Part shown: positions 8,658-22,039 of the stretch, piece by piece
Numbering within the stretch: the first letter of the stretch is position 1
Layout: each line of letters opens with the position of its first letter
NCBI GenBank assembly: GCA_034408705.1
Contig: JAWXCO010000015.1
Location: 25,066 to 49,065, forward strand
Source: Bacteroidota bacterium
GTDB taxonomy: Bacteria > Bacteroidota > Bacteroidia > Chitinophagales > Chitinophagaceae
Reading direction: 5' to 3'
Length of the DNA stretch: 24,000 bases
Notes under the pieces: model-generated
What the model saw: the letters and a program-made list of their open reading frames with translations, nothing else
Databases searched by the model: none
Told to the model about the DNA's origin: nothing
Program-made: the position numbers and the translations under genes

Positions 8658-9668
8658 ATGTTTCATCTGGCAATTCTTACTATATTCACCAAAACTAGCT
8701 GTTTGTTTTACCGTTGCCTTAAACTTATTGCCCGGATTGCCATCCGAATTTTTTGCCGGAAGATAATCATCAACCAACCCGGTTTATTAAAAATCAAGGG
8801 GCCGGTGTTACTGGCTTGTAATCATCCTAATTCTTTTCTCGACTCCGTTATTCTTGATACACTATTTGAACAACCAGTATGGTCACTGGCAAGAGGTGAT
8901 GTATTTAAAAATCCTGTTGTTATCCGGATGCTGACTGCTTTAAAAATATTACCCGTCTATCGTACCAGCGAAGGAGTAGAAAACCTCTCAGAAAATTATA
9001 AAACATTTGAAGCCTGCACTACTATTTTCCGGAATAATGGAATAATAACAATTTTCAGTGAAGGCAAATGTATCAACGAGTGGCATCTCCGTCCCTTAAA
9101 AAAAGGGACAGCAAGACTGGCCATCAAAGCATGGGAAGAAAACATTCCATTACAGGTAATATCAGTCGGTATTAATTACAGTTCGTTCAGGAGGTTTGGC
9201 AAAAATATTTTTCTAAATTTTGGTTCGCCTATCATTAAAGAAAATATTAATTTCACTGAAGCAGATGGCATGCGGCATCAGTCTTTTAATAACCAATTAC
9301 AAAAACAACTGGAACAATTGGTTTTTGAAATACCAAAACAGGATAAACAAAAACAAAGAGAATTACTTGAAATAAAGCCTTCTGTACAAAAAAAAATAGT
9401 ATTGGCTATCCCAGCTGCTGTTGGCTATCTTATTCATTTACCACTTTACTTACCGGTTAAAAAATTTACCTGGAAAAAAAATAATCATAATGATCATTAT
9501 GATTCTGTACTGATCGGCATTCTTCTTTTCGGCTATATACTTTACTTAATTGTACTAGTAGCTATTGTATGGATTATAACCGGCGGCTGGTGGGCAATTT
9601 TCCTACTGATACTTTTACCTTTTACTGCCTGGGCATACACACAACTAAAGCCGCAATTGGATAAATAG
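8658..9668 (+). CDS. membrane-anchored glycerolipid/lysophospholipid acyltransferase family protein
   Basis: Block I ACNHPNSFLDS (again H-x5-D), ARGDVFKN, block III FSEGKC. The C-terminal third has 2-3 TM helices (LAIPAAVGYLIHLPLYL, VLIGILLFGYILYLIVLVAIVWIITGGWWAIFLLILLPF). Confidence 0.65.
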   Translation: MFHLAILTIFTKTSCLFYRCLKLIARIAIRIFCRKIIINQPGLLKIKGPVLLACNHPNSFLDSVILDTLFEQPVWSLARGDVFKNPVVIRMLTALKILPVYRTSEGVENLSENYKTFEACTTIFRNNGIITIFSEGKCINEWHLRPLKKGTARLAIKAWEENIPLQVISVGINYSSFRRFGKNIFLNFGSPIIKENINFTEADGMRHQSFNNQLQKQLEQLVFEIPKQDKQKQRELLEIKPSVQKKIVLAIPAAVGYLIHLPLYLPVKKFTWKKNNHNDHYDSVLIGILLFGYILYLIVLVAIVWIITGGWWAIFLLILLPFTAWAYTQLKPQLDK

Positions 9669-9671
9669 CAG

Positions 9672-10424
9672 TTATTCCTTTTTTACCCCGAAAACAATTT
9701 CTCCACTGGCTTCATTTTTATACGTCTTAAAAAGCCGATCCCAGCAACTAAATACAGAGCCATAATTAGTATCAGTTTCCTGCTGTTTATCTGAATGATG
9801 AATACGGTGCATCAGCGGAGAAGAAAATAGTTTTCTGTATATGTGATCAATCCTACGGCTGATAGCAATATTAGAATGATGGATGAGCACAATTATGAAA
9901 AATATCGCTTCGTAAATAAGAATGGGCAAAAAAGAAAATCCCATCAACAAAAAGAAAATGGCTTTACATACAGTAGAAAACAACAGCTCTACCGTATGAA
10001 AACGTAAAGCGGTGGTAGTATTCATTTTATTATCCTTGTGGTGAAACTGGTGAAAACGCCAGAATATTTTTTGGGTGTGGTTGATGCGGTGCCACCAGTA
10101 CATGGCTAAATCCATAAAAAATATTGTAATCGCCAACTTTAACCAAAATGGGAAAATGAATTGCTGCAACAATCCCATTTTATTTTTTTCAATTGCGGAT
10201 AACAACTCAATTATAAGTACAGATGGGAAAAACAGGATGGCGAGGTTTATGACCCCAATTAATAAATTACGTCCTTCATTTTTTCTGTCATTATATTTAC
10301 GAGCTGCCGGAAATAAATGTTCTGCAGTATATTGCAATAATAAAACAGCAAAAAGAATAATTGATTGCCACCGCTTTTCAGGTATGTGTTCCAGGTAACC
10401 CGAAAAAACAAATGCCAGGGTCAT
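9672..10424 (-). CDS. fatty acid hydroxylase / sterol desaturase superfamily membrane di-iron enzyme
   Basis: Histidine boxes WWHRINH (HxxxH), HQFHHKD (HxxHH) and HRIHHSD (HxxHH), plus about 4 TM segments. Its ATG overlaps the upstream stop as ATGA (10421-10424). Confidence 0.8.
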   Translation of the reverse strand: MTLAFVFSGYLEHIPEKRWQSIILFAVLLLQYTAEHLFPAARKYNDRKNEGRNLLIGVINLAILFFPSVLIIELLSAIEKNKMGLLQQFIFPFWLKLAITIFFMDLAMYWWHRINHTQKIFWRFHQFHHKDNKMNTTTALRFHTVELLFSTVCKAIFFLLMGFSFLPILIYEAIFFIIVLIHHSNIAISRRIDHIYRKLFSSPLMHRIHHSDKQQETDTNYGSVFSCWDRLFKTYKNEASGEIVFGVKKE

Positions 10425-11017
10425 GCTAAACTCTTTTTAGTGACCAGCCAATCTTTTTCCGTATCCACATCGGTAAGTACCGGCAACACATAGAAAGATA
10501 ATTGCTGCTTTCTGAAATCAGCGATGGTGTCATTATATACTGTTGGAGTGCTCCATTCTTTATTCTCAAAAATGAAAGAGTACATTTTTTTCATTCCGAG
10601 AAGGTAATAGCCTCCGTCTTTTGCAGGTCCGATCACTACATCATTTTCATTTAAGGATTCAAATGCTTTATTTACAATTGTTGCGTTTAATTCGAAACAA
10701 TCGCTGCCGATAATAACTGCTTTTTCATACCCTTCTTCAAGTAGCGATGTAAATGCATGGTTCATTTTTTTTCCGAGATCTTTATTGATTTGAACAAATT
10801 TGAAGAATCTTTCAGCTGTCCACAGATCATTACTTTCAATTTCCTCATGATAAAAAACAAATTTATCAGCATCAATTGCATTTGCAATTTGAAAAGTGTG
10901 TTGCAGTAATTCTTTATATATATACAAAGCTTTTTCATCCCCAATAGAGGCTGCCAGTCTTGTTTTTACTTTCCGCAGTTCTGGTTTTCGTACAAATATG
11001 ATTAAGCCCTTTTTCAT
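10421..11017 (-). CDS. DUF2064 / TIGR04282-like (arsenosugar-associated) GT-A / nucleotidyltransferase-fold protein
   Basis: The N-terminus GLIIFVRKPELRKVKTRLA is the DUF2064 signature. 198 aa. ATGA start/stop overlaps at both ends (11014-11017 and 10421-10424). Confidence 0.75.
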   Translation of the reverse strand: MKKGLIIFVRKPELRKVKTRLAASIGDEKALYIYKELLQHTFQIANAIDADKFVFYHEEIESNDLWTAERFFKFVQINKDLGKKMNHAFTSLLEEGYEKAVIIGSDCFELNATIVNKAFESLNENDVVIGPAKDGGYYLLGMKKMYSFIFENKEWSTPTVYNDTIADFRKQQLSFYVLPVLTDVDTEKDWLVTKKSLA

Positions 11018-12084
11018 TTACTTCTCAGCTTTTGGCCTTCTGTTTTTTTAGGGTGTACGGTTCTGTTACGGTTTAAGTTTAATTCCATTTGCTTTTGTGG
11101 TGATGAGTTTTCAGGTGCTTTCCCAAACCGGAGCTTAAATGCCCGCAAGCCTGACTTAATCTCATCCCAAAAATTTGAAGGTGGTTTATACCCGTAAGCC
11201 CGGTATTTGCCGGGTTGTAATTTTCCTTTTGCTGCAACAAAGGTTTTAAAATGTTGCACCCAATTCTCAAATTTATTGATATAATCTTTCTCAAAAATCA
11301 CATCTTCACTTTGGTTTTCGCTGTACTTCTTGCCTACCCCGCTATCTGCATATTCCCATAATTTTTCCGGCACTTCTATTCCACCATACCTGCATTGCCA
11401 TACAAGCGGCGCATATGCCTGTCGCATGTCATCAAATGGTTCTGTATCCCCATCAAAATATTTTTTATGCGTTAAAATTTTCGGAATATTATTTTCATCC
11501 ATTTCATCTCCTCCCTGATCACCATAACAAAAGAATCCAGCAGTTCTCCCTTCGAGGTGATTTAACATTAAGCTCTTCCATTGTTCCGATTGCTCTAATG
11601 CCATTGCTTTTTCCGGATCTTTATGTGCAATTAATTTTTCATCAGGATTACCACCGTTCATGCAAACCATTCTGTCAAACATTAGTTTTAAATTACTGGT
11701 GGGCCCGTACCAGTTCACGGGTCCTATAATGGCCCATGCATCAGCCATATCCAACCGGGCATACATATCTGCATCCCACATAAAATCCGGTTCTGCATGG
11801 CTGTTTTTTTTATAGCAATTACACGGCCACACACATAATGCCATTGAAGTAGATACACAGGCATTGCAACTTTGGATGTGTGCCCTTCCATAAGCGTTGC
11901 TTAAATCCTCGTAATCTATTTCCCATTCCTGCGGCAGCATATCAGCCATTTTTAGCATCAGCATCCTTGCTTTGCTGTCAACACCGGGACAATTGTACTG
12001 TTTACGGCCTGAACCGGCGATTATTAATACCCGGAACGGTCTTTGATCTACAGGTAATGCCGCATTTTTATCATTAGGTTTCAT
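11014..12084 (-). CDS. flavodoxin-like fold (NADPH-dependent FMN reductase family) protein with Cys-rich insert
   Basis: N-terminal RVLIIAGSGRKQYNCPG is the flavodoxin-like nucleotide loop. The Cys cluster CNACVSTSMALCVWPCNC resembles the Fe-S motif of iron-sulfur flavoproteins. The basic C-terminal tail is of unknown function. Confidence 0.5.
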   Translation of the reverse strand: MKPNDKNAALPVDQRPFRVLIIAGSGRKQYNCPGVDSKARMLMLKMADMLPQEWEIDYEDLSNAYGRAHIQSCNACVSTSMALCVWPCNCYKKNSHAEPDFMWDADMYARLDMADAWAIIGPVNWYGPTSNLKLMFDRMVCMNGGNPDEKLIAHKDPEKAMALEQSEQWKSLMLNHLEGRTAGFFCYGDQGGDEMDENNIPKILTHKKYFDGDTEPFDDMRQAYAPLVWQCRYGGIEVPEKLWEYADSGVGKKYSENQSEDVIFEKDYINKFENWVQHFKTFVAAKGKLQPGKYRAYGYKPPSNFWDEIKSGLRAFKLRFGKAPENSSPQKQMELNLNRNRTVHPKKTEGQKLRSK

Positions 12085-12187
12085 AGCTAAAAAATTGGTA
12101 TTGTCTTAAAAAATGCAGTTATATATTTTTTCGCTTAAAATACAAAAGTGTTGTGCTCCTGTCCTCAGTATCTCATAACTTCAATTT

Positions 12188-12517
12188 ATGCAAAATATTT
12201 GGGAAAGTATTAAAAAATACTATGTGACTTTAGGGGAAAGCTATCATGTCGACCCACTTATATTTGTGGGAATACATGTTGTTGCAACTCCTTTATTTAT
12301 TGCGGCTGTTGCATGGCTAATAAGTAATTACCGTAAAAATAAATCAATTTTTCTCCCTGCTATAGTTGCCGTCCTCATTTTTAATGCTGCCAACATCTAT
12401 CTCGTCATTATGGGGAGAAATATACCCTGGTGGATTTATACTATACTAGGGGTAACAACAATACTCAGCAGTTATTTTTCTTACAAAAAAGTAAGGAAGA
12501 AAATAAATGCAAAATAA
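12188..12517 (+). CDS. hypothetical small membrane protein (109 aa, about 3 TM)
   Basis: ATG ORF with hydrophobic segments (LIFVGIHVVATPLFIAAVAWLI, IFLPAIVAVLIFNAANIYLVIM, WWIYTILGVTTILSSYF). It is the only plus-strand ORF inside the cluster. No family recognised. Confidence 0.4.
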   Translation: MQNIWESIKKYYVTLGESYHVDPLIFVGIHVVATPLFIAAVAWLISNYRKNKSIFLPAIVAVLIFNAANIYLVIMGRNIPWWIYTILGVTTILSSYFSYKKVRKKINAK

Positions 12518-12633
12518 AGTACATACCTGTTGCCATGAAAAGAGAACGAGGAAAAGTGCAAACCCGGATAAATCGGGACTGGCACAACAGCGGCTACTAC
12601 TTTAAGAAAATATCTTCGGCTACCACACTATTT

Positions 12634-13602
12634 TTAGCAGCATCCCCCTCCATCATAAAACCAGGTGGAACCAGAAATAAAAATATCTTCACTACCTAAT
12701 GCTGCTAATGCACGGGCAGTTTTATCACAAACCGCTAATGGCTGATTGGGTAATAACAAATGGCCTTTATTATCATCAAAACAATCATTACCGCCATAAT
12801 AAATAGCTGTCTTACCTGTAAACACACAAGGGCCGTCAGCAGGCATCGGGTCTTTTATAGCACATACTTCCACACTCTCTATATAAATAAGTTTGTCGGT
12901 ATCATAGTTCTTTGGGTCAAGAATACGATAAGGACGTTTAGCTCTTATCTCCACGGTACCAAAACCAACATCGGTTATCATTTTAATATAATCCCACAAG
13001 GGTAATGAGCCACTGAGACATAATGCCCTTAACCTTTCATCTTCCCGTAATGATTCCGGCATAATAGCTTCGCAAGTCGGGTCACTCATTACTAATCGGC
13101 CACGGGGTTTCAACACCCGGTACATTTCCCCTAATGCCTGTTTCAAGTCTTCCTGTTTAAAAATATTAAACAAACAATTTTGTGCAGCTACATCTATGCT
13201 TGCATCTTCTACCGGCAAATTCAATGCATCACCTTTTTTTACTCCCACAAACTCACTCCTGAACCAGGGATTTAATTTTTCTGCCTCCACAAAATTCTCC
13301 TTACAAGCTGTTATCATTTCATCAACCACATCTACACCAATAACTCCATTTTGTTGCCGGCTGAAATAAGCAAATTGTAACAACTCCATTCCTCCCCCAA
13401 TACCTACATATAAAATTTTCGGATTATTTACAAGGTCCCTTGGATGAACGGTACTGCCGCATCCGTAATTCATTTGCTGCATCTTTACTGGTATGTCTAA
13501 TCCGGGCAATTGCCAAACGGGCGTTGTAGTACAGCAAAGACCTACCTGTGGATTTTCTGCCGCTTCTCTATAAATATCCCTGGTTGTTTCTAAATATGAC
13601 AT
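12634..13602 (-). CDS. arsM: ArsM-like SAM-dependent arsenite methyltransferase (arsenosugar-cluster type)
   Basis: SAM motif I ILYVGIGGGMEL. Cysteines sit in ArsM-like contexts (GLCC near the N-terminus, AQNCLFNIF, RALCLSGSL). The C-terminus is GGGCC. It lies directly downstream of arsS. Confidence 0.75.
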   Translation of the reverse strand: MSYLETTRDIYREAAENPQVGLCCTTTPVWQLPGLDIPVKMQQMNYGCGSTVHPRDLVNNPKILYVGIGGGMELLQFAYFSRQQNGVIGVDVVDEMITACKENFVEAEKLNPWFRSEFVGVKKGDALNLPVEDASIDVAAQNCLFNIFKQEDLKQALGEMYRVLKPRGRLVMSDPTCEAIMPESLREDERLRALCLSGSLPLWDYIKMITDVGFGTVEIRAKRPYRILDPKNYDTDKLIYIESVEVCAIKDPMPADGPCVFTGKTAIYYGGNDCFDDNKGHLLLPNQPLAVCDKTARALAALGSEDIFISGSTWFYDGGGCC

Positions 13603-13625
13603 CCGTTTATTTTTTTTAGTAAAAA

Positions 13626-14687
13626 TTAAGCTACTGCTCCTCCACAGCTACTTCCTGCACCAGCGGTGCAGCCATAGCAATGTTGGTTTATTACAATTTC
13701 GCGGTTGGCTAAAACAGATAAACTGAATTGTGAAATATGCTGAGATGAACAATTTACTTTCATATCCAGCATCTGGTTAAAATCACAATCATAAATAAAT
13801 CCATCCCAACCAATGGAGAGTGTATTCCGACACATTACATTAGCGGCAGCTACGGGATTAAATGCTAAAACCAGTTTCTCCATATACTTTTCATAGTTGC
13901 CGCTTTCTAATAAATATTGCAGAAAGCGACTGATAGGTAAATTGGTAATAGCAAAAAGGTTGTTGAATTCGATATTGAAATCCCTTTTTAATGCCGCTTT
14001 AAAATCTTTTTGTAAAGCATCCTGAGCAGGCGGCAAAAAAGCACCTGCCGGATTATACACCAGGTTTAATAGTAGACCAGTCCCTATTATTCCATAGCCA
14101 ACTCCGTTCAGCAATTGAAGTGCTTTGATAGAATCTTCAAATACACCATCTCCTCTTTGCCTGTCTGTCCGCTCTTTACTATAAAAAGGAAGTGACGACA
14201 CCACTTCAATATTATGCAGCTTAAAAAATTCTGGAAGGTCATTAAATCTTTTATTGGCCAGGATGATAGTAAGATTGCAACGGACAATTATATGCTTGTC
14301 CAGTTTTTTAATTTCCTCCACAAACCATCTGAAATCGGGATTGAGTTCCGGAGCACCACCGGTAAGATCAACTGTGGTAAAAGATTTATTAGCTGACAGC
14401 ACATTCAAACATTGCTGCATCGTTTCTCTGGTCATTATTTCTTTACGGTCCGGTCCTGCATCCACATGGCAATGCTTGCAAACCTGGTTGCACATTTTGC
14501 CTACATTGATTTGAAAAATTTCTAATTGTATTGGCTTTAATGGAAATAAACCAACCGCCTCCAGTTTTTGCTGAAAGGGCACTAACCTGAAAGCATCATC
14601 ATGATTACGGCCATGCTCCAGGATTTCAATCTGTTCATTTGAATCGGATAACAAGTGATGCTGAGATTTCAGAGACTTCATTTTCAA
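13626..14687 (-). CDS. arsS: radical SAM / Cys-rich domain protein ArsS (TIGR04167-like), Cys form
   Basis: CX3CX2C radical-SAM motif (CNQVCKHC). The characteristic C-terminal motif is CYGCTAGAGSSCGG. The Cys that is Sec in some family members is encoded here by TGT. Confidence 0.85.
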   Translation of the reverse strand: MKMKSLKSQHHLLSDSNEQIEILEHGRNHDDAFRLVPFQQKLEAVGLFPLKPIQLEIFQINVGKMCNQVCKHCHVDAGPDRKEIMTRETMQQCLNVLSANKSFTTVDLTGGAPELNPDFRWFVEEIKKLDKHIIVRCNLTIILANKRFNDLPEFFKLHNIEVVSSLPFYSKERTDRQRGDGVFEDSIKALQLLNGVGYGIIGTGLLLNLVYNPAGAFLPPAQDALQKDFKAALKRDFNIEFNNLFAITNLPISRFLQYLLESGNYEKYMEKLVLAFNPVAAANVMCRNTLSIGWDGFIYDCDFNQMLDMKVNCSSQHISQFSLSVLANREIVINQHCYGCTAGAGSSCGGAVA

Positions 14688-14716
14688 ATTTTCTATTAAC
14701 TGATTATCAGATTTAT

Positions 14717-15052
14717 TTACATGGCCACTTCTTTTACCTTATTCATCATCTGCACACCATGCACTAATGCTGCGCCACCCTTGATGGCAGCAGCTACATG
14801 AATAGCTTCCATCATTTGTCCTTCACTCCATCCTTTTTCAAATGCGTCGCTGCTGTAAGCATCGATACAATAAGGGCATTGTACAGCATGAGCTACGGCT
14901 AAAGCAATCAATGATTTTTCTTTAGCCGTTAAGTTACCTTCTCCAAACACTTCCCCATACCAGGCAAAAAATTTATCGGCCATTGGCTTTTGAAACTCGC
15001 CGACATTTCCAAATTTTCCAAGGTCCTCTGCGTTGTAATAATGATTAGCCAT
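14717..15052 (-). CDS. AhpD/carboxymuconolactone-decarboxylase-like 'peroxidase-like' protein (arsenosugar-associated type)
   Basis: 111 aa with the AhpD-type CxxC motif (VQCPYCIDAY). Only 3 nt separate its ATG from the upstream stop. Confidence 0.75.
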   Translation of the reverse strand: MANHYYNAEDLGKFGNVGEFQKPMADKFFAWYGEVFGEGNLTAKEKSLIALAVAHAVQCPYCIDAYSSDAFEKGWSEGQMMEAIHVAAAIKGGAALVHGVQMMNKVKEVAM

Positions 15053-15055
15053 ATG

Positions 15056-16327
15056 TTATGATTTATAGTTTTGAAGATATAGTGTCCAGTCGTACTCTTT
15101 AAATTGTATTGCCGGCTTTTTATCGGCCGGGACAATTGAAAGTTCCCGAAGTAAAGATAGCATCCCTTTCTTACCTCCAAAATCACGGCGAAACCAGCTC
15201 ATTAATGTGGGCAGCTCTGCCCTATTAGCCACTTCATCATATTTCACCTCACTTGTTAAATAAACTTTTGTTGCGAGTGCCAATTGTTCATTTATACTTT
15301 CCGCCTTATAAAAAGCGATCGGTGGGCAACTTTTGGCTCCGCAGTTCAGGGCAAAATGTAACCGGTAATCCAATTGATTAACCCGCAATTGTTTCTCTGT
15401 TTTACCGGGAAATGGTTTTTTCAAATGCCCCAAACTCCATTTTATACTTGAGCGGCGCAGAATACCATGTTCTATATCATCAAGACTAAATTTTTCTCCC
15501 GCAATCTCTATTTGTTTACTTCCGAAGAATTGACTTCTTTTCTTATACTGCTCAGGATTTTTCTTTAATGATACCTGTGTATATGCATTATAAAGATTTA
15601 TCCAGAAGGCCTTTTTCTCCTCATCTGTTTTTATAGTTGATCGCAGATCAGTCATGGTAATTTGCCGGAGTTGCTGGACAAAACCTGATACATCTTCGTC
15701 TGTTTTGGCAGCATACATAAACTGCTGCGATAGTTGGACTAACCTGTTGGCAGACGGTTCCATGATTTCCTTCTCTTTATTTGTTGAAGATAAAGGTTGG
15801 TTAACAACCTTATTAGTCATACCGATGACCACTGAACCGGCTTCTTCTTCCTTCAACCACTTATCAATATTTTCAGCAGTCATTTCCTCCTGTGAAGGTA
15901 TTGCAATAACTTTGCCACTCTTATTAACAATCACGGTATAAGGATAGGAAGGTGGCTGAAAATGTTTAGTGAATAACTCTTTTTCATCCACTACAAGTGG
16001 TAGTGTAAAGTCTTGTTGTCTGCTGATAAAACTAGTCAGCTTTGCTTCTGGTTCATTTGATACAAGCAGTATTCTCACACGATCGTTGTATTTTTCCTGG
16101 AGGGCTGATAATTTTGGCAAAGCCTTTACACAAGGCACGCACCAGGTACCAAAGAAATCAACTACCAGTAACCGGTCTTTTAACTGCGAAAACGTTGAGG
16201 AAGCAGAAGAACTATTAAGTATTTTATGAACAGGGAAGTCGCCAGTCATATCGTTTAGCCCATATCCAGACTGGCCACGTAATGTGACATTCGCCATGAT
16301 GCATATGAAAAGAAAGCTCCATTTCAT
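15056..16327 (-). CDS. exported TlpA-like thioredoxin fused to a DUF547 domain
   Basis: Start moved to the ATG at 16327, giving the signal-like N-terminus MKWSFLFICIMANVTLRGQ. The thioredoxin motif is FFGTWCVPC. The C-terminal half has DUF547 hallmarks (FWINLYNAY, LDDIEHGILR, HFALNCGAKSCPPI). Confidence 0.7.
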   Translation of the reverse strand: MKWSFLFICIMANVTLRGQSGYGLNDMTGDFPVHKILNSSSASSTFSQLKDRLLVVDFFGTWCVPCVKALPKLSALQEKYNDRVRILLVSNEPEAKLTSFISRQQDFTLPLVVDEKELFTKHFQPPSYPYTVIVNKSGKVIAIPSQEEMTAENIDKWLKEEEAGSVVIGMTNKVVNQPLSSTNKEKEIMEPSANRLVQLSQQFMYAAKTDEDVSGFVQQLRQITMTDLRSTIKTDEEKKAFWINLYNAYTQVSLKKNPEQYKKRSQFFGSKQIEIAGEKFSLDDIEHGILRRSSIKWSLGHLKKPFPGKTEKQLRVNQLDYRLHFALNCGAKSCPPIAFYKAESINEQLALATKVYLTSEVKYDEVANRAELPTLMSWFRRDFGGKKGMLSLLRELSIVPADKKPAIQFKEYDWTLYLQNYKS

Positions 16328-16375
16328 GAAAGACAGGTGTAGTTGGTTAGACGAATGACCTACTATAAACGTAAA

Positions 16376-16387
16376 TTTACCGGTAAA
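16376..16387. promoter_or_regulatory. 12-bp perfect palindrome TTTACCGGTAAA in the divergent control region (candidate operator)
   Basis: Perfect dyad, overlapping a second 10-bp palindrome gtaaatttac (16371-16380). It is centred about 32 nt upstream of the PNP start and lies within the 86-bp gap between the divergent arsenical operon and the PNP gene. Confidence 0.35.
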
Positions 16388-16400
16388 AGATTCGAAATAG

Positions 16401-16408
16401 TAAATTTG
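16401..16408 (+). promoter_or_regulatory. Bacteroidota -7 promoter box (TAAATTTG) for the PNP gene
   Basis: Exact TAnnTTTG match with its G 6 nt before the ATG at 16414, the same geometry as at 3243-3250. Confidence 0.45.
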
Positions 16409-16413
16409 TTTAA

Positions 16414-17238
16414 ATGATATTAACACCTGAAAGTATAGTCGAAACCGCTTCTTTTCTGCGGACATCCGGCTTTAATCAACCTGTGGTGGGTATTGTTATG
16501 GGCACCGGTCTCGGTGCAATGGCAGATAAAATTGAGAACCCGATTTCGATCCCTTATCCGGCCATTCCGAACTTCCCTGAAGCCACGGTAGAGTTTCATA
16601 AAGGCAACCTGTTGTATGGCTCCGTTGGTGACGTGAAGGTCATTGCGATGCAGGGTCGTTTTCATTATTATGAGGGCTATAGTATGCAGCAAATTACTTT
16701 TCCGATACGCGTAATGAAAGCATTAGGTATAAACTATCTTTTTCTAAGCAATGCAGCTGGTGGGCTGAACCCAAGCTACAAAAAAGGCGACCTCGTTTTA
16801 TTGGAAGACCATATCAATTTCCTGCCGGATAATCCGCTTCGGGGCGTAAGTGACCCGGCGCTGGGTCAGCGTTTTGTTGATATGAGCCGTCCCTATGATA
16901 TGCGCTTAATAAAACTGTTAGAAGATACCGCGTTATTACAAAACAAGATGGTAAAAAAAGGGATCTATGCAGCCGTGATGGGCCCTAATCTGGAGACCCG
17001 GGCCGAATACCGCTGGCTCCGTTCCACCGGCGCGGACCTGGTAGGCATGAGTACAGTCCCAGAAGTAATAGTGGCCAACCAGGCTGGGATAAAATGTGCA
17101 GCCATCAGTGTTGTCACGGATGAATGTGACCCCGATCATTTACAACCCGTAAATATTGCTGAGATCATTGAAGTGGCGGGCAGGTCGGATAAAATACTAA
17201 GTGATCTGTTGGTAGCCTGTATAAAAGAATTGAAATAA
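16414..17238 (+). CDS. purine nucleoside phosphorylase, trimeric PNP/MTAP class (PunA-like) with Asp at the base-specificity position
   Basis: Motifs GIVMGTGLG, QGRFHYYEG, LSNAAGGLN, GPNLETRAE and GADLVGMSTVPEVIVA. The ISVVTDE motif puts Asp236 (GAT, 17119-17121) where human PNP has Asn243. Confidence 0.85.
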   Translation: MILTPESIVETASFLRTSGFNQPVVGIVMGTGLGAMADKIENPISIPYPAIPNFPEATVEFHKGNLLYGSVGDVKVIAMQGRFHYYEGYSMQQITFPIRVMKALGINYLFLSNAAGGLNPSYKKGDLVLLEDHINFLPDNPLRGVSDPALGQRFVDMSRPYDMRLIKLLEDTALLQNKMVKKGIYAAVMGPNLETRAEYRWLRSTGADLVGMSTVPEVIVANQAGIKCAAISVVTDECDPDHLQPVNIAEIIEVAGRSDKILSDLLVACIKELK

Positions 17239-17283
17239 GTCTCCATACAATAAAACTACTTACATGCAGGGGATCGGGTAGTT

Positions 17284-17976
17284 TTAGCGGTAGTTCAGCA
17301 TTTTTTTATACATATGCACCATTTCCACCTGGGAAGCCCCATTTTTATACATACTGACGATCTTCCTGTTGGTCATTTGTACTTTCCACCAGCTGTTTGT
17401 GTCATATTTACGGGCTGAAACAAGGGTCGGCTTATTAAAGATTTTGTACCGCTCTTTTTCTCTTGCCCTTGAAACAAATTCATACTCTTCCATGATCAGC
17501 ATATCTGTTTTGAAACCACCTGCGCTCATATACAAATCCCGGGTAATAAAAAGTGTCTGGTCTCCACCCATACAGATAAACCAGTCGAACCGGGTAAACC
17601 ACGCATTGATCTTTAAATACCATTTACGGGAATTAAATTGTGTACGATACCGGCCGATAGCAAACCCATCTTCTATTGCCTTGCTAATATCGGCAACAAA
17701 AGAGGCAGGAGGGAATGTATCTGCATGGACAAAATATAAAACATCTCCTTTGGCCAATGATGCCGCATAGTGCATTTGTGCTGCCCTGCCTTTTTGAGGT
17801 GAGAGAATCCCTGCTGCTCCTGCATTGTTAGCTATCAGCAACGTATCATCCGTACTGCCAGCATCCACCACAATGATTTCTGCGACCGCCTCCGTTTTAT
17901 ATTGCAGAAGATAACGGATAAGTTCTCCGATATGCTCAGCTTCATTATAAACCGGTATGATAATACTTATCTGCAT
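17284..17976 (-). CDS. family-2 glycosyltransferase, TIGR04283-like (arsenosugar-associated type)
   Basis: IIIPVYNE, VVDAGSTDDT, GRAAQM, LYFVHADTFPP, GGDQTLFITR and MEEYEF. The ~230 aa size is typical of the small GT2 that co-occurs with DUF2064 proteins. Confidence 0.7.
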   Translation of the reverse strand: MQISIIIPVYNEAEHIGELIRYLLQYKTEAVAEIIVVDAGSTDDTLLIANNAGAAGILSPQKGRAAQMHYAASLAKGDVLYFVHADTFPPASFVADISKAIEDGFAIGRYRTQFNSRKWYLKINAWFTRFDWFICMGGDQTLFITRDLYMSAGGFKTDMLIMEEYEFVSRAREKERYKIFNKPTLVSARKYDTNSWWKVQMTNRKIVSMYKNGASQVEMVHMYKKMLNYR

Positions 17977-18005: not shown

Positions 18006-19238
18006 TTATAAAGAAATTTGAGCAATCGTTTTACCAGCAATAAACCCACTGGTCCAGGCATACTGGAAATTAAATCCGCCGGTCACTCCGTCTACATCCA
18101 AGACTTCACCGGCAAAAAAAAGGTTCGGTTGTTTTTTACTCATCATCGTTGTATGATCGATTTCAGTAAGCCGGATACCGCCAGCCGTTACAAATTCTTC
18201 TTTGAATGTTGTTTTCCCTTTTACCTCAAACCCGCAACTACATAAATTCTTAACCAGTTTGTTGGCATCTTTTGAAGGCAGATCGGTCCATCTTCTTTCT
18301 GCATCTACACCTGAATAATGCAATAAAAAATCCCATAATCTTCCCGGCAAACCGAAATGGTTTTTTGTTCCTAGTTTTTGTGCAGCAATTTCAAAACGAA
18401 GTGACTGAAATTTCTCAGCCAGTTGTTGTTCATTGTAATTTGGCAACCAGTTAACAACGATACTAAAATTATATTGTTTAATAGCCAGTTCCCGGGCTCC
18501 CCATGCACTTAGCTTTAATATTGCCGGGCCGCTCATTCCCCAATGGGTAATCAGTAGCGGGCCCTCCTGTTCAAGCTTTGTTCCGGTGATCTTGACCCTG
18601 GTATTTTCCACACTTACACCCATCAGTTCCCTGATCGGATGACCTGGCATATTAAACGTGAATAAAGATGGGACCGGGTCTTCAATGGAATGTCCCAGCT
18701 CCCGCAGCCATTCAAACATAGAAGACTTTGGATATCCCCCGCTTGCAATACATATATAGTCAGCTGTAAGCATCCTGGAGTTGGATAGTTGAATGGCAAA
18801 TTGTCCTTTCTTACTGTTTATGTTTTTTACTTCTGTCTGCATCATCATTTCAATACCATACCGGCTCATTTCGTTCAGCAGGCAATCAATGATTGTCTGA
18901 GAGGAGTCAGTAATGGGAAACATTCTTCCGTCTTTTTCCTCTTTCAGTTCTACTCCTCTTTGGCGAAACCAGTCGATCGTATCTGTGGTAAAAAACTGGT
19001 GAAACGTTTTCTTTACAAAATTTCCTCCCCTTGGATATCTTTTACTCATATCCGCAATATCAAAACAAGCGTGCGTAACATTGCAGCGGCCACCGCCACT
19101 TACTTTTACTTTCGATAAAAGCTTACCGGTCTTTTCTATCAGGATGACCTGCAGGTTAGGGTTTAATCTTGCTGCATTCACTGCACAGAAAAAACCGGCT
19201 GCTCCGCCCCCTACCACTACCAGTTTTTTTACTACCAT
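18006..19238 (-). CDS. HI0933/YhiN (BaiN-like) family NAD(P)/FAD-dependent oxidoreductase
   Basis: Start moved to the ATG at 19238 (MVVKKLVVVGGGAAGFF, the dinucleotide-binding GxGxxG). SGGGRCNVTH is the family signature. The longer ORF to 19421 would overlap map. Confidence 0.8.
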   Translation of the reverse strand: MVVKKLVVVGGGAAGFFCAVNAARLNPNLQVILIEKTGKLLSKVKVSGGGRCNVTHACFDIADMSKRYPRGGNFVKKTFHQFFTTDTIDWFRQRGVELKEEKDGRMFPITDSSQTIIDCLLNEMSRYGIEMMMQTEVKNINSKKGQFAIQLSNSRMLTADYICIASGGYPKSSMFEWLRELGHSIEDPVPSLFTFNMPGHPIRELMGVSVENTRVKITGTKLEQEGPLLITHWGMSGPAILKLSAWGARELAIKQYNFSIVVNWLPNYNEQQLAEKFQSLRFEIAAQKLGTKNHFGLPGRLWDFLLHYSGVDAERRWTDLPSKDANKLVKNLCSCGFEVKGKTTFKEEFVTAGGIRLTEIDHTTMMSKKQPNLFFAGEVLDVDGVTGGFNFQYAWTSGFIAGKTIAQISL

Positions 19239-19265
19239 AAAATAAAACCCCTCAGCTGAGGGGTT
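19239..19265 (-). terminator. 20-bp perfect palindrome plus U-tract spanning the map stop codon
   Basis: aacccctcagctgaggggtt (19246-19265) is a perfect dyad containing the map TGA. On the minus strand it is followed by TTATTTT, which runs directly into the ATG at 19238. Confidence 0.55.
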
Positions 19266-20070
19266 GAAGTATTTGTTGGGTAAATAAGTTAGGATTTGTT
19301 TCTTCTGCCTTTTCAATCGTACTGTAATTGGACAATATATCTGCCTTCCCTTTCCTGACACAGACATCATGTTCAAAATGCACCGATGGTTTTCCGTCCT
19401 TTGTCCGTACGGTCCAGCCATCTTCTTCAGTAAACACTTCTTTCTTTCCCAGGTTGATCATCGGTTCTATTGCCAGCACCAATCCTTCTTTCAATTTCGG
19501 ACCGCTTCCCCGTTTGCCATAGTTAGGTACCTGGGGATCTTCATGCAGGCTCCGGCCCAGCCCATGCCCCACCAATTCCCTTACCACACCATAGCCATTT
19601 TTTTTCTCTGTATGCTCCTGTATGGCAAATGCAATATCTCCGATCCTGTTCCCTATTACTGCTTTTTCAATCCCTTTATACAACGATTCTTTTGTCACTT
19701 GTATCAGCCGCAATGTTTCAACTCCCGGATCACCAATAGCAAAAGTGTAGGCATGATCACCGTGCCAGCCGTTTAATATGACACCGATATCGACAGAAAT
19801 AATATTCCCTTCGGCCAGTTCATTCGGCCCGGGGAAACCATGCACCACCACATCATTGACTGAAATACAGGAATTATAAGGGTAACCTTTATAATTTAAA
19901 AAGGAAGGAATGGCTTCGTGATCCCTGATAAACTGGCCAATCACTTTATCTATAGAAAGGGTGGTGATACCAGGTTTCAGCATTCCGGCCACTTCGGCCA
20001 ATGTCTTACTGACCAGCAATGCACTCTTGCGCATCATTTCGACCTGTTCATCTGTTTTATAAAGCATCAT
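19252..20070 (-). CDS. map: type I methionine aminopeptidase
   Basis: Metal-ligand blocks SVDIGV...GWHGD, VGHGLG, LAIEPM and HFEHD. The ORF track begins at a TTG (20079); the first ATG is at 20070 (MMLYKTDEQVEMMR), with 20067 as an alternative. Confidence 0.9.
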   Translation of the reverse strand: MMLYKTDEQVEMMRKSALLVSKTLAEVAGMLKPGITTLSIDKVIGQFIRDHEAIPSFLNYKGYPYNSCISVNDVVVHGFPGPNELAEGNIISVDIGVILNGWHGDHAYTFAIGDPGVETLRLIQVTKESLYKGIEKAVIGNRIGDIAFAIQEHTEKKNGYGVVRELVGHGLGRSLHEDPQVPNYGKRGSGPKLKEGLVLAIEPMINLGKKEVFTEEDGWTVRTKDGKPSVHFEHDVCVRKGKADILSNYSTIEKAEETNPNLFTQQILQPLS

Positions 20071-20087
20071 ACGTTGCAAATATCTTT

Positions 20088-20122
20088 AAAAAAACAAAAC
20101 CCGGCAAGTATTGCTTACCGGG
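20088..20122 (-). terminator. rho-independent terminator after secY
   Basis: Minus-strand cccgguaagc-aauac-uugccggg (9 bp with 1 mismatch) followed by UUUUGUUUUUUU. It lies 22 nt after the secY stop and just upstream of map. Confidence 0.7.
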
Positions 20123-20144
20123 TCCTGCTGTATAAAATTTATTG

Positions 20145-21485
20145 TTACATCTGGACTGCAGAAGTGGTTTGACGGCCCTGTATACGTCCGCTTTTCATTA
20201 AGCCATCGTACTGACGCATTAATAACTGTGTTTCGATTTGTTGTAAAGTATCGAGGATAACACCTACCATGATCAGCAATGAAGTACCACCAAAGAACGT
20301 AGAGAAAGCCTGTGTTACACCGAACCGCTCTGCAATACCCGGAAGAATACCCACAAAAGCAAGTAAAAATGCACCGGGCAGTGTGATACGGTCCATGATA
20401 GCACCGATATAATCCGCCGTCGGTTGTCCTGGTTTTACACCGGGGATAAAACCGTTATTCTGTTTCAGGTTATCCGCTATTTGCTTGGGATTAAAGATCA
20501 GCGCCGTGTACAAAAAGGTAAATCCAATTACCACCACGGAGTAAATAAGCATATACCACAAACTCTTATGGTCGGTCAGTTCTCTTAAGAAACTACCACT
20601 GGTTGGATTAAAATTTGCAAAAATGGTAGGGATAAAGATGATCGCCTGGGCAAAAATGATAGGCATAACACCGGCACTGTTCACCTTCAATGGTAGAAAC
20701 TGTCTGGCGCCACCAAACTGGCGGTTCCCCACTATTTGCTTGGCATAGTTCACCGGTACTTTACGTACACCCTGTATCAGCAAAATACATCCCATAATGA
20801 TCGCAATCAGGATGGCTATTTCAATAATGAAAATCAAAATATCACCGCTTCTGCCTGATTTGCTACTTAACTCCTGGAGGAAAGACTGTGGCAAACGGGC
20901 CAGGATACCGATCATGATGATCAACGAAGTTCCATTACCCAATCCTTTATCAGTGATCTTCTCTCCCATCCACATGACAAACATGGTTCCTGCTGTTAAT
21001 ACCACTACAGTGATTAACCAGAAACTGGAAGGAGAAAGTCCTGCCATCATCGCTCCGGACTGTGCGGTCAATCCTTCTAAATATTTTACATAAGCAGATG
21101 CCTGTAATATGGTAACTGCTACCGTGAGGTAACGGGTGTATTGATTGATTTTCTTACGCCCACTATCACCTTCTTTTTGCATTTTCTGAAAACGGGGCAC
21201 CAGCACCGTCATCAGCTGCATAAAAATGGAAGCAGAGATATAAGGCATGATACCCAATGCAAAAATGGAGGCGTTATTAAATGCACCTCCGGAGAAAGCA
21301 TCGATCAAACCGAGGATACCATTATTATTTCTATCACCGGTTTCGAGCTTAGTAGGATCAATACCGGGCAAAACAATATGTGAACCAATCCGGTAGATTG
21401 CGATCATCATCAGGGTAAAAAGAATTTTACCCCGCAACTCTTCAATGCTCCAGATATTTTTGAGTGTCTGTATTAATTTCTTCAC
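20145..21485 (-). CDS. secY: preprotein translocase subunit SecY
   Basis: Full-length 10-TM SecY (LGIMPYISASI, GEKITDKGLGNGTSLIIM, LLIMVGVILDT). It appears to start at a GTG (21485). Confidence 0.95.
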   Translation of the reverse strand: MKKLIQTLKNIWSIEELRGKILFTLMMIAIYRIGSHIVLPGIDPTKLETGDRNNNGILGLIDAFSGGAFNNASIFALGIMPYISASIFMQLMTVLVPRFQKMQKEGDSGRKKINQYTRYLTVAVTILQASAYVKYLEGLTAQSGAMMAGLSPSSFWLITVVVLTAGTMFVMWMGEKITDKGLGNGTSLIIMIGILARLPQSFLQELSSKSGRSGDILIFIIEIAILIAIIMGCILLIQGVRKVPVNYAKQIVGNRQFGGARQFLPLKVNSAGVMPIIFAQAIIFIPTIFANFNPTSGSFLRELTDHKSLWYMLIYSVVVIGFTFLYTALIFNPKQIADNLKQNNGFIPGVKPGQPTADYIGAIMDRITLPGAFLLAFVGILPGIAERFGVTQAFSTFFGGTSLLIMVGVILDTLQQIETQLLMRQYDGLMKSGRIQGRQTTSAVQM

Positions 21486-21553
21486 GGGAATTAAAAAAAT
21501 TTAAAAGCACTTAAAACATACTACCCCGGCTTGCTGGTGTAGTACATATAAAA

Positions 21554-21572
21554 GACGCATTGTCAGTGCGTC
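21554..21572 (-). terminator. possible attenuator hairpin between rplO and secY
   Basis: Minus-strand gacgca-cugacaa-ugcguc followed by UUUUAUAU, within a 104-nt rplO-secY spacer. Confidence 0.3.
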
Positions 21573-21589
21573 GTTACAATTTAGCGAAA

Positions 21590-22039
21590 TTACTTTACAA
21601 TCTCTATCGTTCCACCTGCCGCTTCAATAGCGGATTTGGCTTTCGCACTTGCAGCATTCACTTTGAAAGTGAATTTACCATTCAGCTCCCCGTTTCCCAG
21701 TATTTTTATTCTGTCGTTTTGGGCAATCAGGCCGTTAATATACAAACTCTCCGGTGAAAATTCAGTGATACTATATTTCTCAGACAATTGTTCGATTTGT
21801 CCCAGATTCAATACTTTATATTCTATCCGGTTAATGTTCGTAAAACCACGTTTAGGGACACGCCGCTGAATAGGCATCTGGCCACCTTCATGCGCCATTT
21901 TACTTTTATAACCTGAGCGGCTTTGTCCGCCTTTGGTACCTTTTGTAGATGTTCCACCATGACCAGAACCATCACCACGGCCAATTCTTTTGTCTTTGTG
22001 TACAGAACCTTTTGCAGGTCTTAATTCGTGTAGTTTCAT
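21590..22039 (-). CDS. rplO: 50S ribosomal protein L15
   Basis: MKLHELRPAKGS...RIGRG.GSG.G.TS.KG.KG. This is the canonical L15 N-terminus, in the operon position after L30. Confidence 0.95.
   Translation of the reverse strand: MKLHELRPAKGSVHKDKRIGRGDGSGHGGTSTKGTKGGQSRSGYKSKMAHEGGQMPIQRRVPKRGFTNINRIEYKVLNLGQIEQLSEKYSITEFSPESLYINGLIAQNDRIKILGNGELNGKFTFKVNAASAKAKSAIEAAGGTIEIVK

Follow-up and report, generated by a model that had tools for sequence, protein, structure and literature searches.

What might an exported thioredoxin-like protein contribute to an operon that otherwise encodes enzymes of arsenic metabolism? The question is raised by four genes near the middle of the window, the 24,000-nucleotide stretch of Bacteroidota DNA analyzed here. 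All four lie on the minus strand, at positions 12634–13602 (322 aa), 13626–14687 (353 aa), 14717–15052 (111 aa), and 15056–16465, and, in order from the gene for ArsM to the gene for a thioredoxin-DUF547 fusion, are separated by gaps of 23, 29, and 3 nt. When the open reading frames and motifs were re-read directly, the coordinates, gaps, and motifs of an initial annotation proved to be real, but the four-gene unit it had drawn was too small, having overlooked both glycosyltransferase families, a purine nucleoside phosphorylase (PNP), and other members. Judged by its gene content, the region from 9672 to 17976 is a full Bacteroidota arsenosugar-type cluster, of which the four genes are the core.

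The identities first proposed for ArsM and ArsS hold. The product of 12634–13602 is an ArsM-type arsenite methyltransferase of the arsenosugar subfamily (NF038099, 561.3 bits against a cut-off of 400), and that of 13626–14687 is the radical-SAM enzyme ArsS, with a CX3CX2C motif and a C-terminal Cys-rich DUF3641 domain (TIGR04167, 440.8 bits against 300; PF12345, 186.9 bits). The motifs CNQVCKHC and HCYGCTAGAGSSCGG can be read directly from the ArsS translation, and C66, C70, C73, C286, C301, C337, and C340 are invariant among 49 diverse homologues. Elsewhere, ArsS is found fused to ArsM-type methyltransferase domains, in both orders, and to a CMD (AhpD-like) domain. For the chemistry of ArsS we follow the literature (PMC13598754; PMC12159101, citing Cheng et al. 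2021), in whose account the enzyme of the cyanobacterium Synechocystis was characterized in vitro by Cheng et al. The cyanobacterial ArsM and ArsS belong to the same curated families as those of the window, and the CX3CX2C motif and Cys-rich C-terminal domain of ArsS are common to both. Unlike the cyanobacterial case, the host here is a heterotrophic member of the Bacteroidota, and the two genes are grouped with genes for a PNP, TIGR04282 and TIGR04283 proteins, an AhpD-like protein, and the exported fusion. Steps past adenosylation appear in the literature consulted only as a hypothetical "adenosyl nucleosidase" (PMC10456119), and our literature search found no report of an arsenosugar product from Bacteroidota.

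The 111-residue AhpD-like protein (14717–15052, minus strand) carries the motif QCPYC and is a member of TIGR04169 (174.6 bits against a cut-off of 120). It had been presented as one of two unassigned partners. It is true that no chemical step has been assigned to either partner, but the AhpD-like family is a curated one that already bears the NCBI name "arsenosugar biosynthesis-associated peroxidase-like protein", and in one protein (P0164) the domain is fused to ArsS. That both accessory proteins are thiol proteins stands, given the CxxC of the AhpD-like protein and the WCVPC and C-x4-C motifs of the fusion. In 73 of 82 Bacteroidota ArsS loci the AhpD-like gene immediately precedes ArsS on the same strand, and its product is probably a cytoplasmic thiol helper dedicated to ArsS and ArsM.

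Five further genes extend the cluster on both sides of the core. A divergently transcribed gene (16414–17238, plus strand) encodes a trimeric-type PNP that passes NF006054 (340 bits against 218) and TIGR01700 and falls below the cut-off for methylthioadenosine phosphorylase (MTAP; 101.5 bits against 274.85). Where human PNP, like other 6-oxopurine enzymes, has Asn243, all 34 cluster PNPs have Asp, a change that presumably shifts preference to 6-aminopurine nucleosides, as in MTAP; the same Asp is present in 4m1e and 4lna, the nearest bacterial PNPs of known structure, and is hence not specific to the cluster. We consider this PNP a candidate for the enzyme that removes adenine. The two families that NCBI names "arsenosugar glycosyltransferase" are represented by a TIGR04283 family 2 glycosyltransferase (GT2; 17284–17976, minus strand; 214.1 bits against 182) and a CofC-like TIGR04282 (DUF2064) transferase (10421–11017, minus strand; 205.6 bits against 134), and in locus L090 a GT2 is fused to DUF2064. 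The roles we propose for the PNP and these two transferases would follow from context and family chemistry. The TIGR04282 gene is overlapped by 4 nt at its start by the end of a gene (11014–12084, minus strand) for an FMN_red-like flavoprotein with a C-x2-C-x8-C-x3-C-x-C cluster (PF03358, 27.9 bits against 24). This flavoprotein, a possible electron donor, is 67–80% identical to proteins of five other ArsS loci; searches of the PDB and NCBIfam found no relative. The TIGR04282 gene is also overlapped by 4 nt by a gene (9672–10424, minus strand) for an FA_hydroxylase-family membrane protein (PF04116, 102.8 bits), which is distantly OlsE-like and accessory; its OlsE score, 89.8 bits, is below the cut-off of 475. 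Such a gene is present in 15 of the 82 ArsS loci, always downstream and on the same strand, and often adjoins DUF547. Finally, a small 109-aa hydrophobic protein (12188–12517, plus strand), whose membership in the cluster is uncertain, had no family match in profile searches; tblastn found relatives with 37–43% identity near ArsS or DUF547 in L013, L016, L082, L104, L107, L123, and L149.

How general is this arrangement? In tallies over the 82 loci, made without phylogenetic correction, TIGR04282 is found in 57, ArsM in 36, PNP in 34, TIGR04283 in 28, rhodanese in 27, and DUF547 in 25. Both accessory genes are co-conserved with arsS, a point that the initial annotation had named as a test of its reading, and DUF547 is so in several arrangements. 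A matching gene set occurs amid different flanking genes in L007, L089, and L095. The set corresponds to the NCBIfam "rSAM/selenodomain-associated" families, now named for arsenosugar biosynthesis: TIGR04167, TIGR04169, TIGR04282, TIGR04283, and NF038099, together with NF045521 ("rhoda_near_glyco"). The first five are all represented in the window above their curated cut-offs, in a gene order like that of many Bacteroidota. PNP lies outside the named set; DUF547, with or without thioredoxin, has no NCBIfam model; and the place taken in many relatives by the NF045521 rhodanese is filled in the window by a fused thioredoxin. The cluster is a Bacteroidota version of an already annotated arsenosugar gene cluster. 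The ArsM, ArsS, and AhpD-like families already have NCBI names for arsenosugar biosynthesis, only the thioredoxin-DUF547 fusion is truly without assignment, and this exported protein, accompanying the glycosyltransferase of the pathway, is the one new feature.

The fusion is a 423-aa protein encoded at 15056–16327 (minus strand). We place its start at 16327 (MKWSFLFICIMANVTLRGQ...), because this is the start consistent with the 11 of 11 homologues whose N-termini were read (M-K/R/Y, a run of hydrophobic residues, and A/G/S before a Q) and because an open reading frame extended to 16465 would run into the divergent PNP gene, whose start is at 16414. Residues 1–19 form a predicted signal peptide (16271–16327, minus strand) with probable cleavage at LRG|Q, signal peptides being judged by inspection and a crude hydropathy rule rather than by a trained predictor. 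The signal is kept across homologues, in agreement with the export first proposed, and the localization suggests that part of the arsenosugar chemistry may be periplasmic. The architecture is kept in 119 of the 120 homologues listed, and in an AlphaFold model residues 165–189 form a disordered linker between two well-folded domains. The thioredoxin-fold domain with WCVPC (15848–16216, minus strand) matches Thioredoxin_8, AhpC-TSA, and Redoxin (PF13905, PF00578, and PF08534; 44–47 bits). Among solved structures it is closest to the extracytoplasmic reductants ResA, StoA, and TlpA, with which it shares export, the fold, and a WCxPC active site. It nevertheless scores far below the cut-offs of all three families (for ResA 59.7 bits against 170 and for TlpA 28.8 against 230 in NCBIfam) and so is not an orthologue, and its presumed client is covalently attached. 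TlpA keeps the metal-binding cysteine pair of its client reduced, and our working model for the fusion builds on this precedent.

The DUF547 domain (15068–15760, minus strand; PF04784, 117.1 bits against a cut-off of 27) reads NCGAKSCPP in the translation and contains an invariant C329-x4-C334-P as well as invariant E286, H324, and D382. The C-x4-CP motif is present in 79 of 80 metagenome DUF547 open reading frames and is invariant in the DUF547 proteins of the 25 ArsS-linked loci, all of which have a signal peptide or lipobox. A model of the domain has pLDDT 84 and pTM 0.84; a search of the PDB returned no fold match (best E-value 2.5), and a literature search found no paper on DUF547 function. 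Its invariant residues (Glu, Asp, His, Tyr, and Trp) would also suit an enzyme that processes sugars and holds a structural disulfide. In plants, DUF547 is likewise fused to a thioredoxin-fold thiol oxidoreductase, in the class IV glutaredoxins (GRX-DEP-DUF547; PMC13621322). Unlike the window fusion, these proteins are cytosolic and contain a DEP domain. We know of no link between them and arsenic or a glycosyltransferase.

With which enzyme does DUF547 work? Its place relative to ArsS varies, with at least four different positions among Chitinophagales, Sphingobacteriales, Cytophagales, Flavobacteriales, and Saprospiraceae; roughly two in three ArsS neighborhoods are without it, as are all four non-Bacteroidota ArsS loci sampled. 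All loci in which the thioredoxin-fused form was seen were of the Chitinophagaceae type. When we searched outward from DUF547, the ten such fusions that came up were all in arsenosugar-type clusters: nine adjoined an AhpD-like gene or ArsS, and one, on a contig of 3.1 kb, had a weak TIGR04282 match only. Among ArsS-linked loci, an exported rhodanese is present in 16 of 21 in which DUF547 lacks thioredoxin and in none of the four with the fused form. This rhodanese (NF045521) directly follows ArsS in 27 of the 82 loci and has a C-x4-R loop, which we take to be of the sulfurtransferase type. Many thioredoxin-less DUF547 genes adjoin a TIGR04283 glycosyltransferase without ArsS within 8 kb, and 8 of 10 GT2 genes adjoining DUF547 in ArsS-less loci score above the TIGR04283 cut-off. 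In Aequorivita sublithincola, DUF547 is accompanied by PNP, DUF2064, and GT2 in the absence of ArsS and ArsM. In genomic context, DUF547 is associated most closely with the TIGR04283 glycosyltransferase and not with ArsS or ArsM. Because so many thioredoxin-less copies adjoin TIGR04283 with no ArsS nearby, DUF547 would belong to the late, glycosyl-transfer stage. The ArsS-less pairs could serve a glycoconjugate that does not contain arsenic.

The reading that best accounts for the whole, to which we give a probability of roughly 55%, is an arsenosugar cluster whose exported thioredoxin-DUF547 protein serves the glycosyl-transfer stage at the envelope. In the cytoplasm, ArsM would convert As(III) to DMAs(III), and ArsS would join the 5'-deoxyadenosyl group of SAM to yield 5'-deoxy-5'-dimethylarsinoyl-adenosine, both steps being established for the families, with the AhpD-like protein as their probable thiol helper. 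Phosphorolysis by the cluster PNP could then remove adenine to give arsenoribose-1-phosphate, and this sugar phosphate might be activated by the TIGR04282 protein and passed to an acceptor by the TIGR04283 enzyme. In the oxidizing periplasm the TlpA-like domain would maintain or recycle the C-x4-C dithiol of DUF547, a job that in other Bacteroidota appears to fall to the exported rhodanese or to a separate thioredoxin. DUF547 itself would act at the cell envelope with the glycosyl-transfer stage, its target most likely being the arsenic center or the fate of an exported arsenoriboside.

Much of the same evidence bears on an alternative that we consider unlikely, if the most serious: DUF547 as a partner of TIGR04283 that processes sugars or lipids in the periplasm and has no part in arsenic redox, its cysteines being structural or regulatory, the thioredoxin or rhodanese serving folding or maintenance alone, and the pair of GT2 and DUF547 being a general glycoconjugate module recruited by arsenosugar clusters. 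Such pairs, in divergent or tandem orientation and 3–180 nt apart, do occur in many loci that have no ArsS, AhpD-like, ArsM, TIGR04282, or PNP gene within 8 kb; E286, D382, H324, and the invariant Tyr, Trp, Asn, and Gln recall carbohydrate-active sites; L095 has more glycosyltransferases and a GT-C-like MptA_B protein downstream; and the frequent neighbor FA_hydroxylase is of a lipid type. But a reductive-type thioredoxin fused to a structural-disulfide protein would be odd, three recurring thiol partners (fused thioredoxin, exported rhodanese, and plant glutaredoxin) point to a redox-active cysteine pair, and most of the GT2 partners score as TIGR04283; ArsS may simply lie elsewhere in those genomes. 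Slightly less likely, in our judgment, is a role in supply, in which the fusion would reduce arsenicals or bind As(III) in the periplasm, converting or holding penta- or trivalent arsenic outside the cytoplasm so that As(III) can enter and feed ArsM, its thioredoxin domain keeping the dithiol reduced much as TlpA keeps that of the copper chaperone ScoI. An exported protein with an invariant vicinal cysteine pair and a thioredoxin half akin to the reductive TlpA and ResA would fit, as would the gene for a MIP channel that separates ArsS from ArsM in L007 and L008. Against it, C-x4-CP characterizes the DUF547 family as a whole, even members that have no arsenic gene in sight and the cytosolic plant members; DUF547 follows the glycosyltransferase rather than ArsM; the A. 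sublithincola locus has it without ArsS or ArsM; and an arsenate-reductase-type loop is absent, the loop of the partner rhodanese being C-x4-R.

The rhodanese invites a further proposal, that the exported module turns an oxo-arsenosugar (As=O) into a thio-arsenosugar (As=S) with sulfane sulfur carried by the rhodanese or sulfide released by the thioredoxin domain. Its export, its loop, and its place directly after ArsS are in keeping with this, and thio-arsenosugars occur in nature; the partner in the window is, however, a thioredoxin and not a sulfur carrier, and the same conversion can be spontaneous with sulfide. We regard the proposal as improbable. Least credible, and already disfavored, is that the fusion, as an ordinary thiol oxidoreductase of the envelope, sits beside the cluster only through shared Chitinophagaceae ancestry. 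TlpA-like proteins are abundant in Bacteroidota, and the restriction of the fused form to Chitinophagaceae-type loci is what such ancestry would produce, but the varied positions of DUF547 across these lineages of Bacteroidota, the changing flanking genes among relatives, and the independently found fusions beside AhpD-like or ArsS genes all speak against it, the chance of an unlinked gene falling within 10 kb on either side being about 0.5% per copy. Should the preferred reading, an exported DUF547 protein serving the glycosyl-transfer stage, be true, the uncharacterized DUF547 family would gain a testable role.

All four genes lie on the minus strand, and translation of the window reproduced the open reading frames that the initial annotation had described, together with the gaps of 23, 29 and 3 nt between them. 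They encode an ArsM-like methyltransferase (12634-13602; NF038099, 561.3 bits against a cut-off of 400), the radical-SAM enzyme ArsS (13626-14687; TIGR04167, 440.8 bits against 300), a 111-residue AhpD-like protein, also called CMD (14717-15052; TIGR04169, 174.6 bits against 120), and a fusion of thioredoxin to DUF547, here Trx-DUF547 (15056-16327; PF04784, 117.1 bits against a gathering cut-off of 27), which also scores with thioredoxin-fold families in a Pfam search. The identities proposed for ArsS and ArsM thus hold at the NCBIfam cut-offs. The quoted motifs are likewise present in translation: the CX3CX2C motif of ArsS reads CNQVCKHC and its C-terminal HCYGCTAGAGSSCGG fits a CxxC...SS(C/U)GG ending, the AhpD-type CxxC is QCPYC, and Trx-DUF547 contains both WCVPC and NCGAKSCPP. 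The motif cysteines of ArsS are invariant in an alignment of 49 diverse homologues, and its C-terminal cysteine-rich DUF3641 domain scores 186.9 bits with PF12345; the ArsM-like protein has a class I SAM methyltransferase fold, with Methyltransf_31, _11 and _25 on record for an identical protein. Because NCBI already names TIGR04167, TIGR04169, TIGR04282, TIGR04283 and NF038099 for arsenosugar biosynthesis, and because the ArsS name is present in Flavobacteriaceae RefSeq records, the core of the cluster is an annotated kind of cluster and not a new one. To call the AhpD-like protein a novel partner was therefore an overstatement, TIGR04169 being a curated family with the arsenosugar name at NCBI. 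Among the features that set the window apart from the NCBI-named set are the additional DUF547, for which NCBIfam searches of the window and its relatives found no model, the fusion of the thioredoxin and the absence of the rhodanese.

The four genes had been presented as a tight unit; they are real, but the cluster is larger. It also includes a TIGR04283 glycosyltransferase of the GT2 family (17284-17976, minus strand; 214.1 bits against 182), a purine nucleoside phosphorylase, or PNP, transcribed in the divergent direction (16414-17238, plus strand; NF006054, 340 bits against 218), the DUF2064/CofC-like transferase TIGR04282 (10421-11017, minus strand; 205.6 bits against 134) and, from Pfam matches, a 356-residue FMN_red-like protein (11014-12084, minus strand) and an FA_hydroxylase-family protein (9672-10424, minus strand). 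Overlaps of 4 nt chain the TIGR04282, FMN_red-like and FA_hydroxylase genes. The window comes from a metagenome contig, and the nearest relatives are Chitinophagaceae. In relatives with quite different flanks, PNP, Trx-DUF547, CMD, ArsS, ArsM, DUF2064 and GT2 are kept together, with an MIP channel and a 354-residue glyoxalase-fold protein as variable inserts. Since two related loci (L007 and L089) hold the same cluster in unrelated flanks, the cluster has moved as a unit.

DUF547 is a large family found in bacteria and plants. The longest reading frame of Trx-DUF547 begins at 16465, a start that would run into the divergent PNP gene. From 16327, translation yields MKWSFLFICIMANVTLRGQ, and the N-terminus then follows the pattern of its homologues: M-K/R/Y, a hydrophobic stretch, and A/G/S followed by Q (11 of 11 inspected). 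Gene callers chose shorter starts on identical metagenome contigs (413 and 397 residues), and the assignment of a signal peptide therefore rests on homologue conservation and inspection, with no trained predictor; on this basis the protein is predicted to be exported, in agreement with the earlier proposal. Its WCVPC matches the WCxPC active site of the TlpA/ResA/StoA type. The likeness is at the level of fold and active site only, and orthology was rejected by the scores (ResA, 59.7 against 170; StoA, 44.1 against 210; TlpA, 28.8 against 230). A sequence search of the PDB returned solved relatives of the thioredoxin half only, led by ResA, StoA and TlpA. In a model of the full-length fusion, a disordered linker (residues 165-189) connects two confidently modeled domains. 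Modeled alone, the DUF547 domain is mostly helical (pLDDT 84, pTM 0.84), and one Foldseek search of the PDB found no significant structural match to it (best E-value 2.5, TM-score 0.2). Its C-x4-CP hallmark is present in 79 of 80 DUF547 relatives.

We compared neighborhoods of ArsS in 80 loci from species genomes, all but two from Bacteroidota; open reading frames were clustered over 82 loci (these 80, L007 and the window), and genes were also counted in the subset of 45 loci that extend 8 kb or more to either side. Both of the thiol-redox partners placed beside ArsS by the initial annotation recurred. The AhpD-like gene was present in 73/82 loci (43/45 in the subset), always directly upstream of ArsS on the same strand, and DUF547 in 25/82 (16/45). 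The corresponding counts were 57/82 (36/45) for TIGR04282, 36/82 (20/45) for ArsM, 34/82 (19/45) for PNP, 28/82 (18/45) for TIGR04283, 27/82 (20/45) for an exported rhodanese that is absent from the window, and 15/82 (11/45) for FA_hydroxylase. None of four ArsS loci sampled outside Bacteroidota, a small sample, had DUF547. DUF547-bearing loci from isolate genomes include those of Kordia jejudonensis (L078), Neotamlana nanhaiensis (L086) and Polaribacter porphyrae (L088). DUF547 occupies at least four kinds of position relative to ArsS: directly upstream of the AhpD-like gene; adjoining TIGR04283 several kilobases downstream; adjoining ArsM, in Hymenobacter and Adhaeribacter; and, at one locus, on the opposite strand. 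Its linkage to ArsS is therefore not simple inherited synteny. All of the ArsS-linked DUF547 proteins have a predicted signal peptide or lipobox, and all have C-x4-CP. Among them the thioredoxin is fused in Chitinophagaceae-type loci only, and the exported rhodanese (NCBIfam NF045521, 'rhoda_near_glyco'; 192.8 bits against 145), whose gene usually lies immediately after ArsS, is present in 16 of the 21 loci with DUF547 lacking the thioredoxin and in none of the four with the fusion (Fisher p = 2.6e-6, kinship ignored).

Searching metagenomes with the DUF547 alignment yielded 80 loci centered on DUF547. Nine of ten Trx-DUF547 fusions lie beside AhpD-like or ArsS genes, the tenth (L105, 3.1 kb) having a weak TIGR04282 match only, and the same is true of five of seven DUF547 genes without thioredoxin at 55% identity or more. 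Among DUF547 genes of lower identity (34-50%), many lie 3-180 nt from a GT2 gene, divergently or in tandem, and none of these pairs has ArsS, AhpD-like, ArsM, TIGR04282 or PNP within 8 kb. Eight of ten GT2 proteins from such pairs score above the TIGR04283 cut-off. Thus, the nearest genomic partner of DUF547 is the TIGR04283 glycosyltransferase. In Aequorivita sublithincola (CP003280.1; L094 6882-11718) the order is rhodanese-DUF2064-PNP-FA_hydroxylase-DUF547-GT2, with no ArsS, ArsM or AhpD-like gene beside it; this species is not among the named ArsS homologue matches, most matches bearing no name. In a second flavobacterial genome the operon is complete, with all eight genes. The pathway appears to consist of ArsM, PNP and two modules: one comprises AhpD-like, ArsS and TIGR04282, the other TIGR04283 and DUF547, to which rhodanese or the glyoxalase-fold protein may be added. 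Full clusters such as that of the window merge both modules. Two further loci, L119 and L120 (about 0.6 kb after DUF547), hold the trio of a divergent GT2 gene, DUF547 and the rhodanese, and no ArsS within 8 kb. The glyoxalase/VOC-fold protein adjoins the TIGR04283 gene in six metagenome loci (for example L126, 5964-7028) and in L007 (8016-9080); the MIP channel gene lies between those for ArsS and ArsM in L007 (12691-13353) and L008.

Gene fusions join several of these components. ArsS is found in one polypeptide with an ArsM-type methyltransferase, in either order, and also with CMD (P0142, P0146, P0156, P0174, P0203 and P0164), and GT2 is fused to DUF2064 in L090 (2400-3791). Further long ArsS proteins (P0141, P0151 and P0153) carry extra N-terminal sequence that matches no Pfam family, and an NCBIfam family of ArsM/AhpD-domain fusions, NF041537, exists and matches only weakly in the window. 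In plants, class IV glutaredoxins consist of a glutaredoxin fused to DUF547 (PMC13621322). From the gene fusions we infer that the AhpD-like protein assists ArsS and ArsM directly in the cytoplasm, that TIGR04282 and TIGR04283 act in consecutive steps, and that DUF547 is a client of its thioredoxin-fold partner.

Asn243 of PNP sets specificity for 6-oxopurines, and Asp at that position favors adenine nucleosides, as in MTA phosphorylase. With the register checked against the human PNP sequence, the position corresponding to human Asn243 is Asp in the cluster enzymes: SV(I/V/L)TD is present in 34/34 ArsS-cluster PNPs, that of the window (SVVTDECD) included. It is not a signature of the cluster: Asp is likewise found there in 4m1e and 4lna, the nearest bacterial PNPs of solved structure, which makes it a feature of the clade. 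Nor does the enzyme reach the MTA phosphorylase cut-off (TIGR01694, 101.5 bits against 274.85); it is a member of the PNP family with an Asp243-type substitution. Given Asp243 and a 5'-substituted adenosine as the product of ArsS (PMC13598754), the cluster PNP is a plausible candidate for the enzyme that removes adenine, a step represented in the literature consulted only by a hypothetical 'adenosyl nucleosidase' (PMC10456119).

Other genes recur near the cluster. The FMN_red-like protein, which has the Cys cluster CNACVSTSMALCVWPCNC and no relative in a PDB sequence search or in NCBIfam, is 67-80% identical in five further ArsS loci (L015, L018, L019, L020 and L082) and may be an iron-sulfur flavoprotein that gives electrons to ArsS. 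Flavobacterial clusters are repeatedly followed, a short way downstream, by paired genes for a Pyr_redox_2 flavoprotein and a NapH-like membrane polyferredoxin (L094 12933-15839; L095 12579-15463; also L044, L046, L047, L051, L054, L081 and L084), two proteins that may likewise supply electrons; beyond this pair, L095 has more GT2 genes and one for a GT-C-like MptA_B protein. FA_hydroxylase, distantly OlsE-like, often lies immediately before DUF547 in the 15 of 82 ArsS loci that carry it, and in the window it adjoins a PlsC-type acyltransferase (8658-9668, plus strand), which hints that the product or acceptor could be a lipid. A hydrophobic protein of 109 residues (12188-12517, plus strand) matches no family, and relatives at 37-43% identity lie near ArsS or DUF547 in L013, L016, L082, L104, L107, L123 and L149. 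Antisense frames in ArsS, ArsM and AhpD-like genes (14254-14514 and 12760-13005, plus strand; ORF clusters 6, 9, 10, 12 and 18), "conserved" over many loci, are most simply explained by conservation of the coding strand. Promoter-like sites between 9500 and 18200 numbered 22, against 27.1 in shuffled sequence, in a promoter and terminator scan unsuited to Bacteroidota promoters. The window cluster is flanked by housekeeping genes, a SecY/methionine aminopeptidase/ribosomal-protein operon (19252-23908) and ribosomal protein S1 (6528-8504). The longest frame of an HI0933-like flavoprotein (18006-19421, minus strand; 471 residues) is extended at its N-terminus into the methionine aminopeptidase gene; on identical contigs, gene callers give 410 residues.

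GT2 enzymes are inverting, and the beta-riboside is the known configuration of arsenosugars. ArsM enzymes make DMAs(III) from As(III), and ArsS enzymes adenosylate DMAs(III) with SAM in a redox-neutral reaction (PMC13598754 for ArsS). By analogy with these families, ArsM and then ArsS of the window would lead through DMAs(III) to adenosylated arsenic. Context and family chemistry suggest that the AhpD-like protein would serve as a thiol helper and that PNP would release arsenoribose-1-phosphate. TIGR04282, being CofC-like, probably activates the sugar phosphate as a nucleotidyltransferase, and TIGR04283, as an inverting GT2 enzyme, would yield a beta-riboside. The 'arsenosugar glycosyltransferase' names of TIGR04282 and TIGR04283 rest on gene context: a literature search found no experimental paper on arsenoribosyl transfer by either, and the literature found assigns no glycosyl-transfer enzyme to the steps after ArsS. 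A further literature search found no report of arsenosugar synthesis or of a dimethylarsinoyl-riboside product in Bacteroidota.

For DUF547 itself several roles can be considered. Its predicted localization, its invariant cysteine pair (C329 and C334 of the C-x4-CP hallmark) and its three kinds of thiol partner point to Trx-DUF547 as a self-recycling periplasmic dithiol protein, which would be tied to the glycosyl-transfer stage. A bolder reading, with a probability of only about 0.3, is that biosynthesis of arsenosugars (or arsenosugar lipids) in heterotrophic Bacteroidota has an extracytoplasmic stage in which DUF547 would be a thiol-dependent enzyme acting on the product of TIGR04283, with a TlpA-like domain in the fusion, or else an exported rhodanese, to recycle it. 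The reaction of DUF547 could be redox chemistry or thiolation at arsenic, or the protein could bind arsenicals or take them up. Alternatively, DUF547 could process a sugar or lipid, its cysteines forming a non-catalytic disulfide; the GT2 neighbor and the recurrent FA_hydroxylase are the genes to be set beside that possibility, and the thioredoxin and rhodanese beside a thiol-dependent enzyme.

What is new here is the link to DUF547, with TIGR04283 as its nearest partner, the alternation of thioredoxin and rhodanese, and the PNP candidate. The cluster offers a concrete, ordered set of candidates for the steps after ArsS: the Asp243-type PNP, the CofC-like TIGR04282 and the TIGR04283 glycosyltransferase. 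That DUF547 is tied to a single family of glycosyltransferases, and has thiol partners of three kinds, provides a first experimental handle on it, and an extracytoplasmic DUF547 stage, if it exists, would be the first function for DUF547 and, by extension, would bear on the plant class IV glutaredoxins. DUF547, PNP and TIGR04282 would then fill the enzymatic gap from adenosylated arsenic to the arsenosugars. Finally, should heterotrophic Bacteroidota turn out to produce arsenosugars or arsenolipids, a source of such compounds in soils, in lakes and in the sea would have been overlooked.
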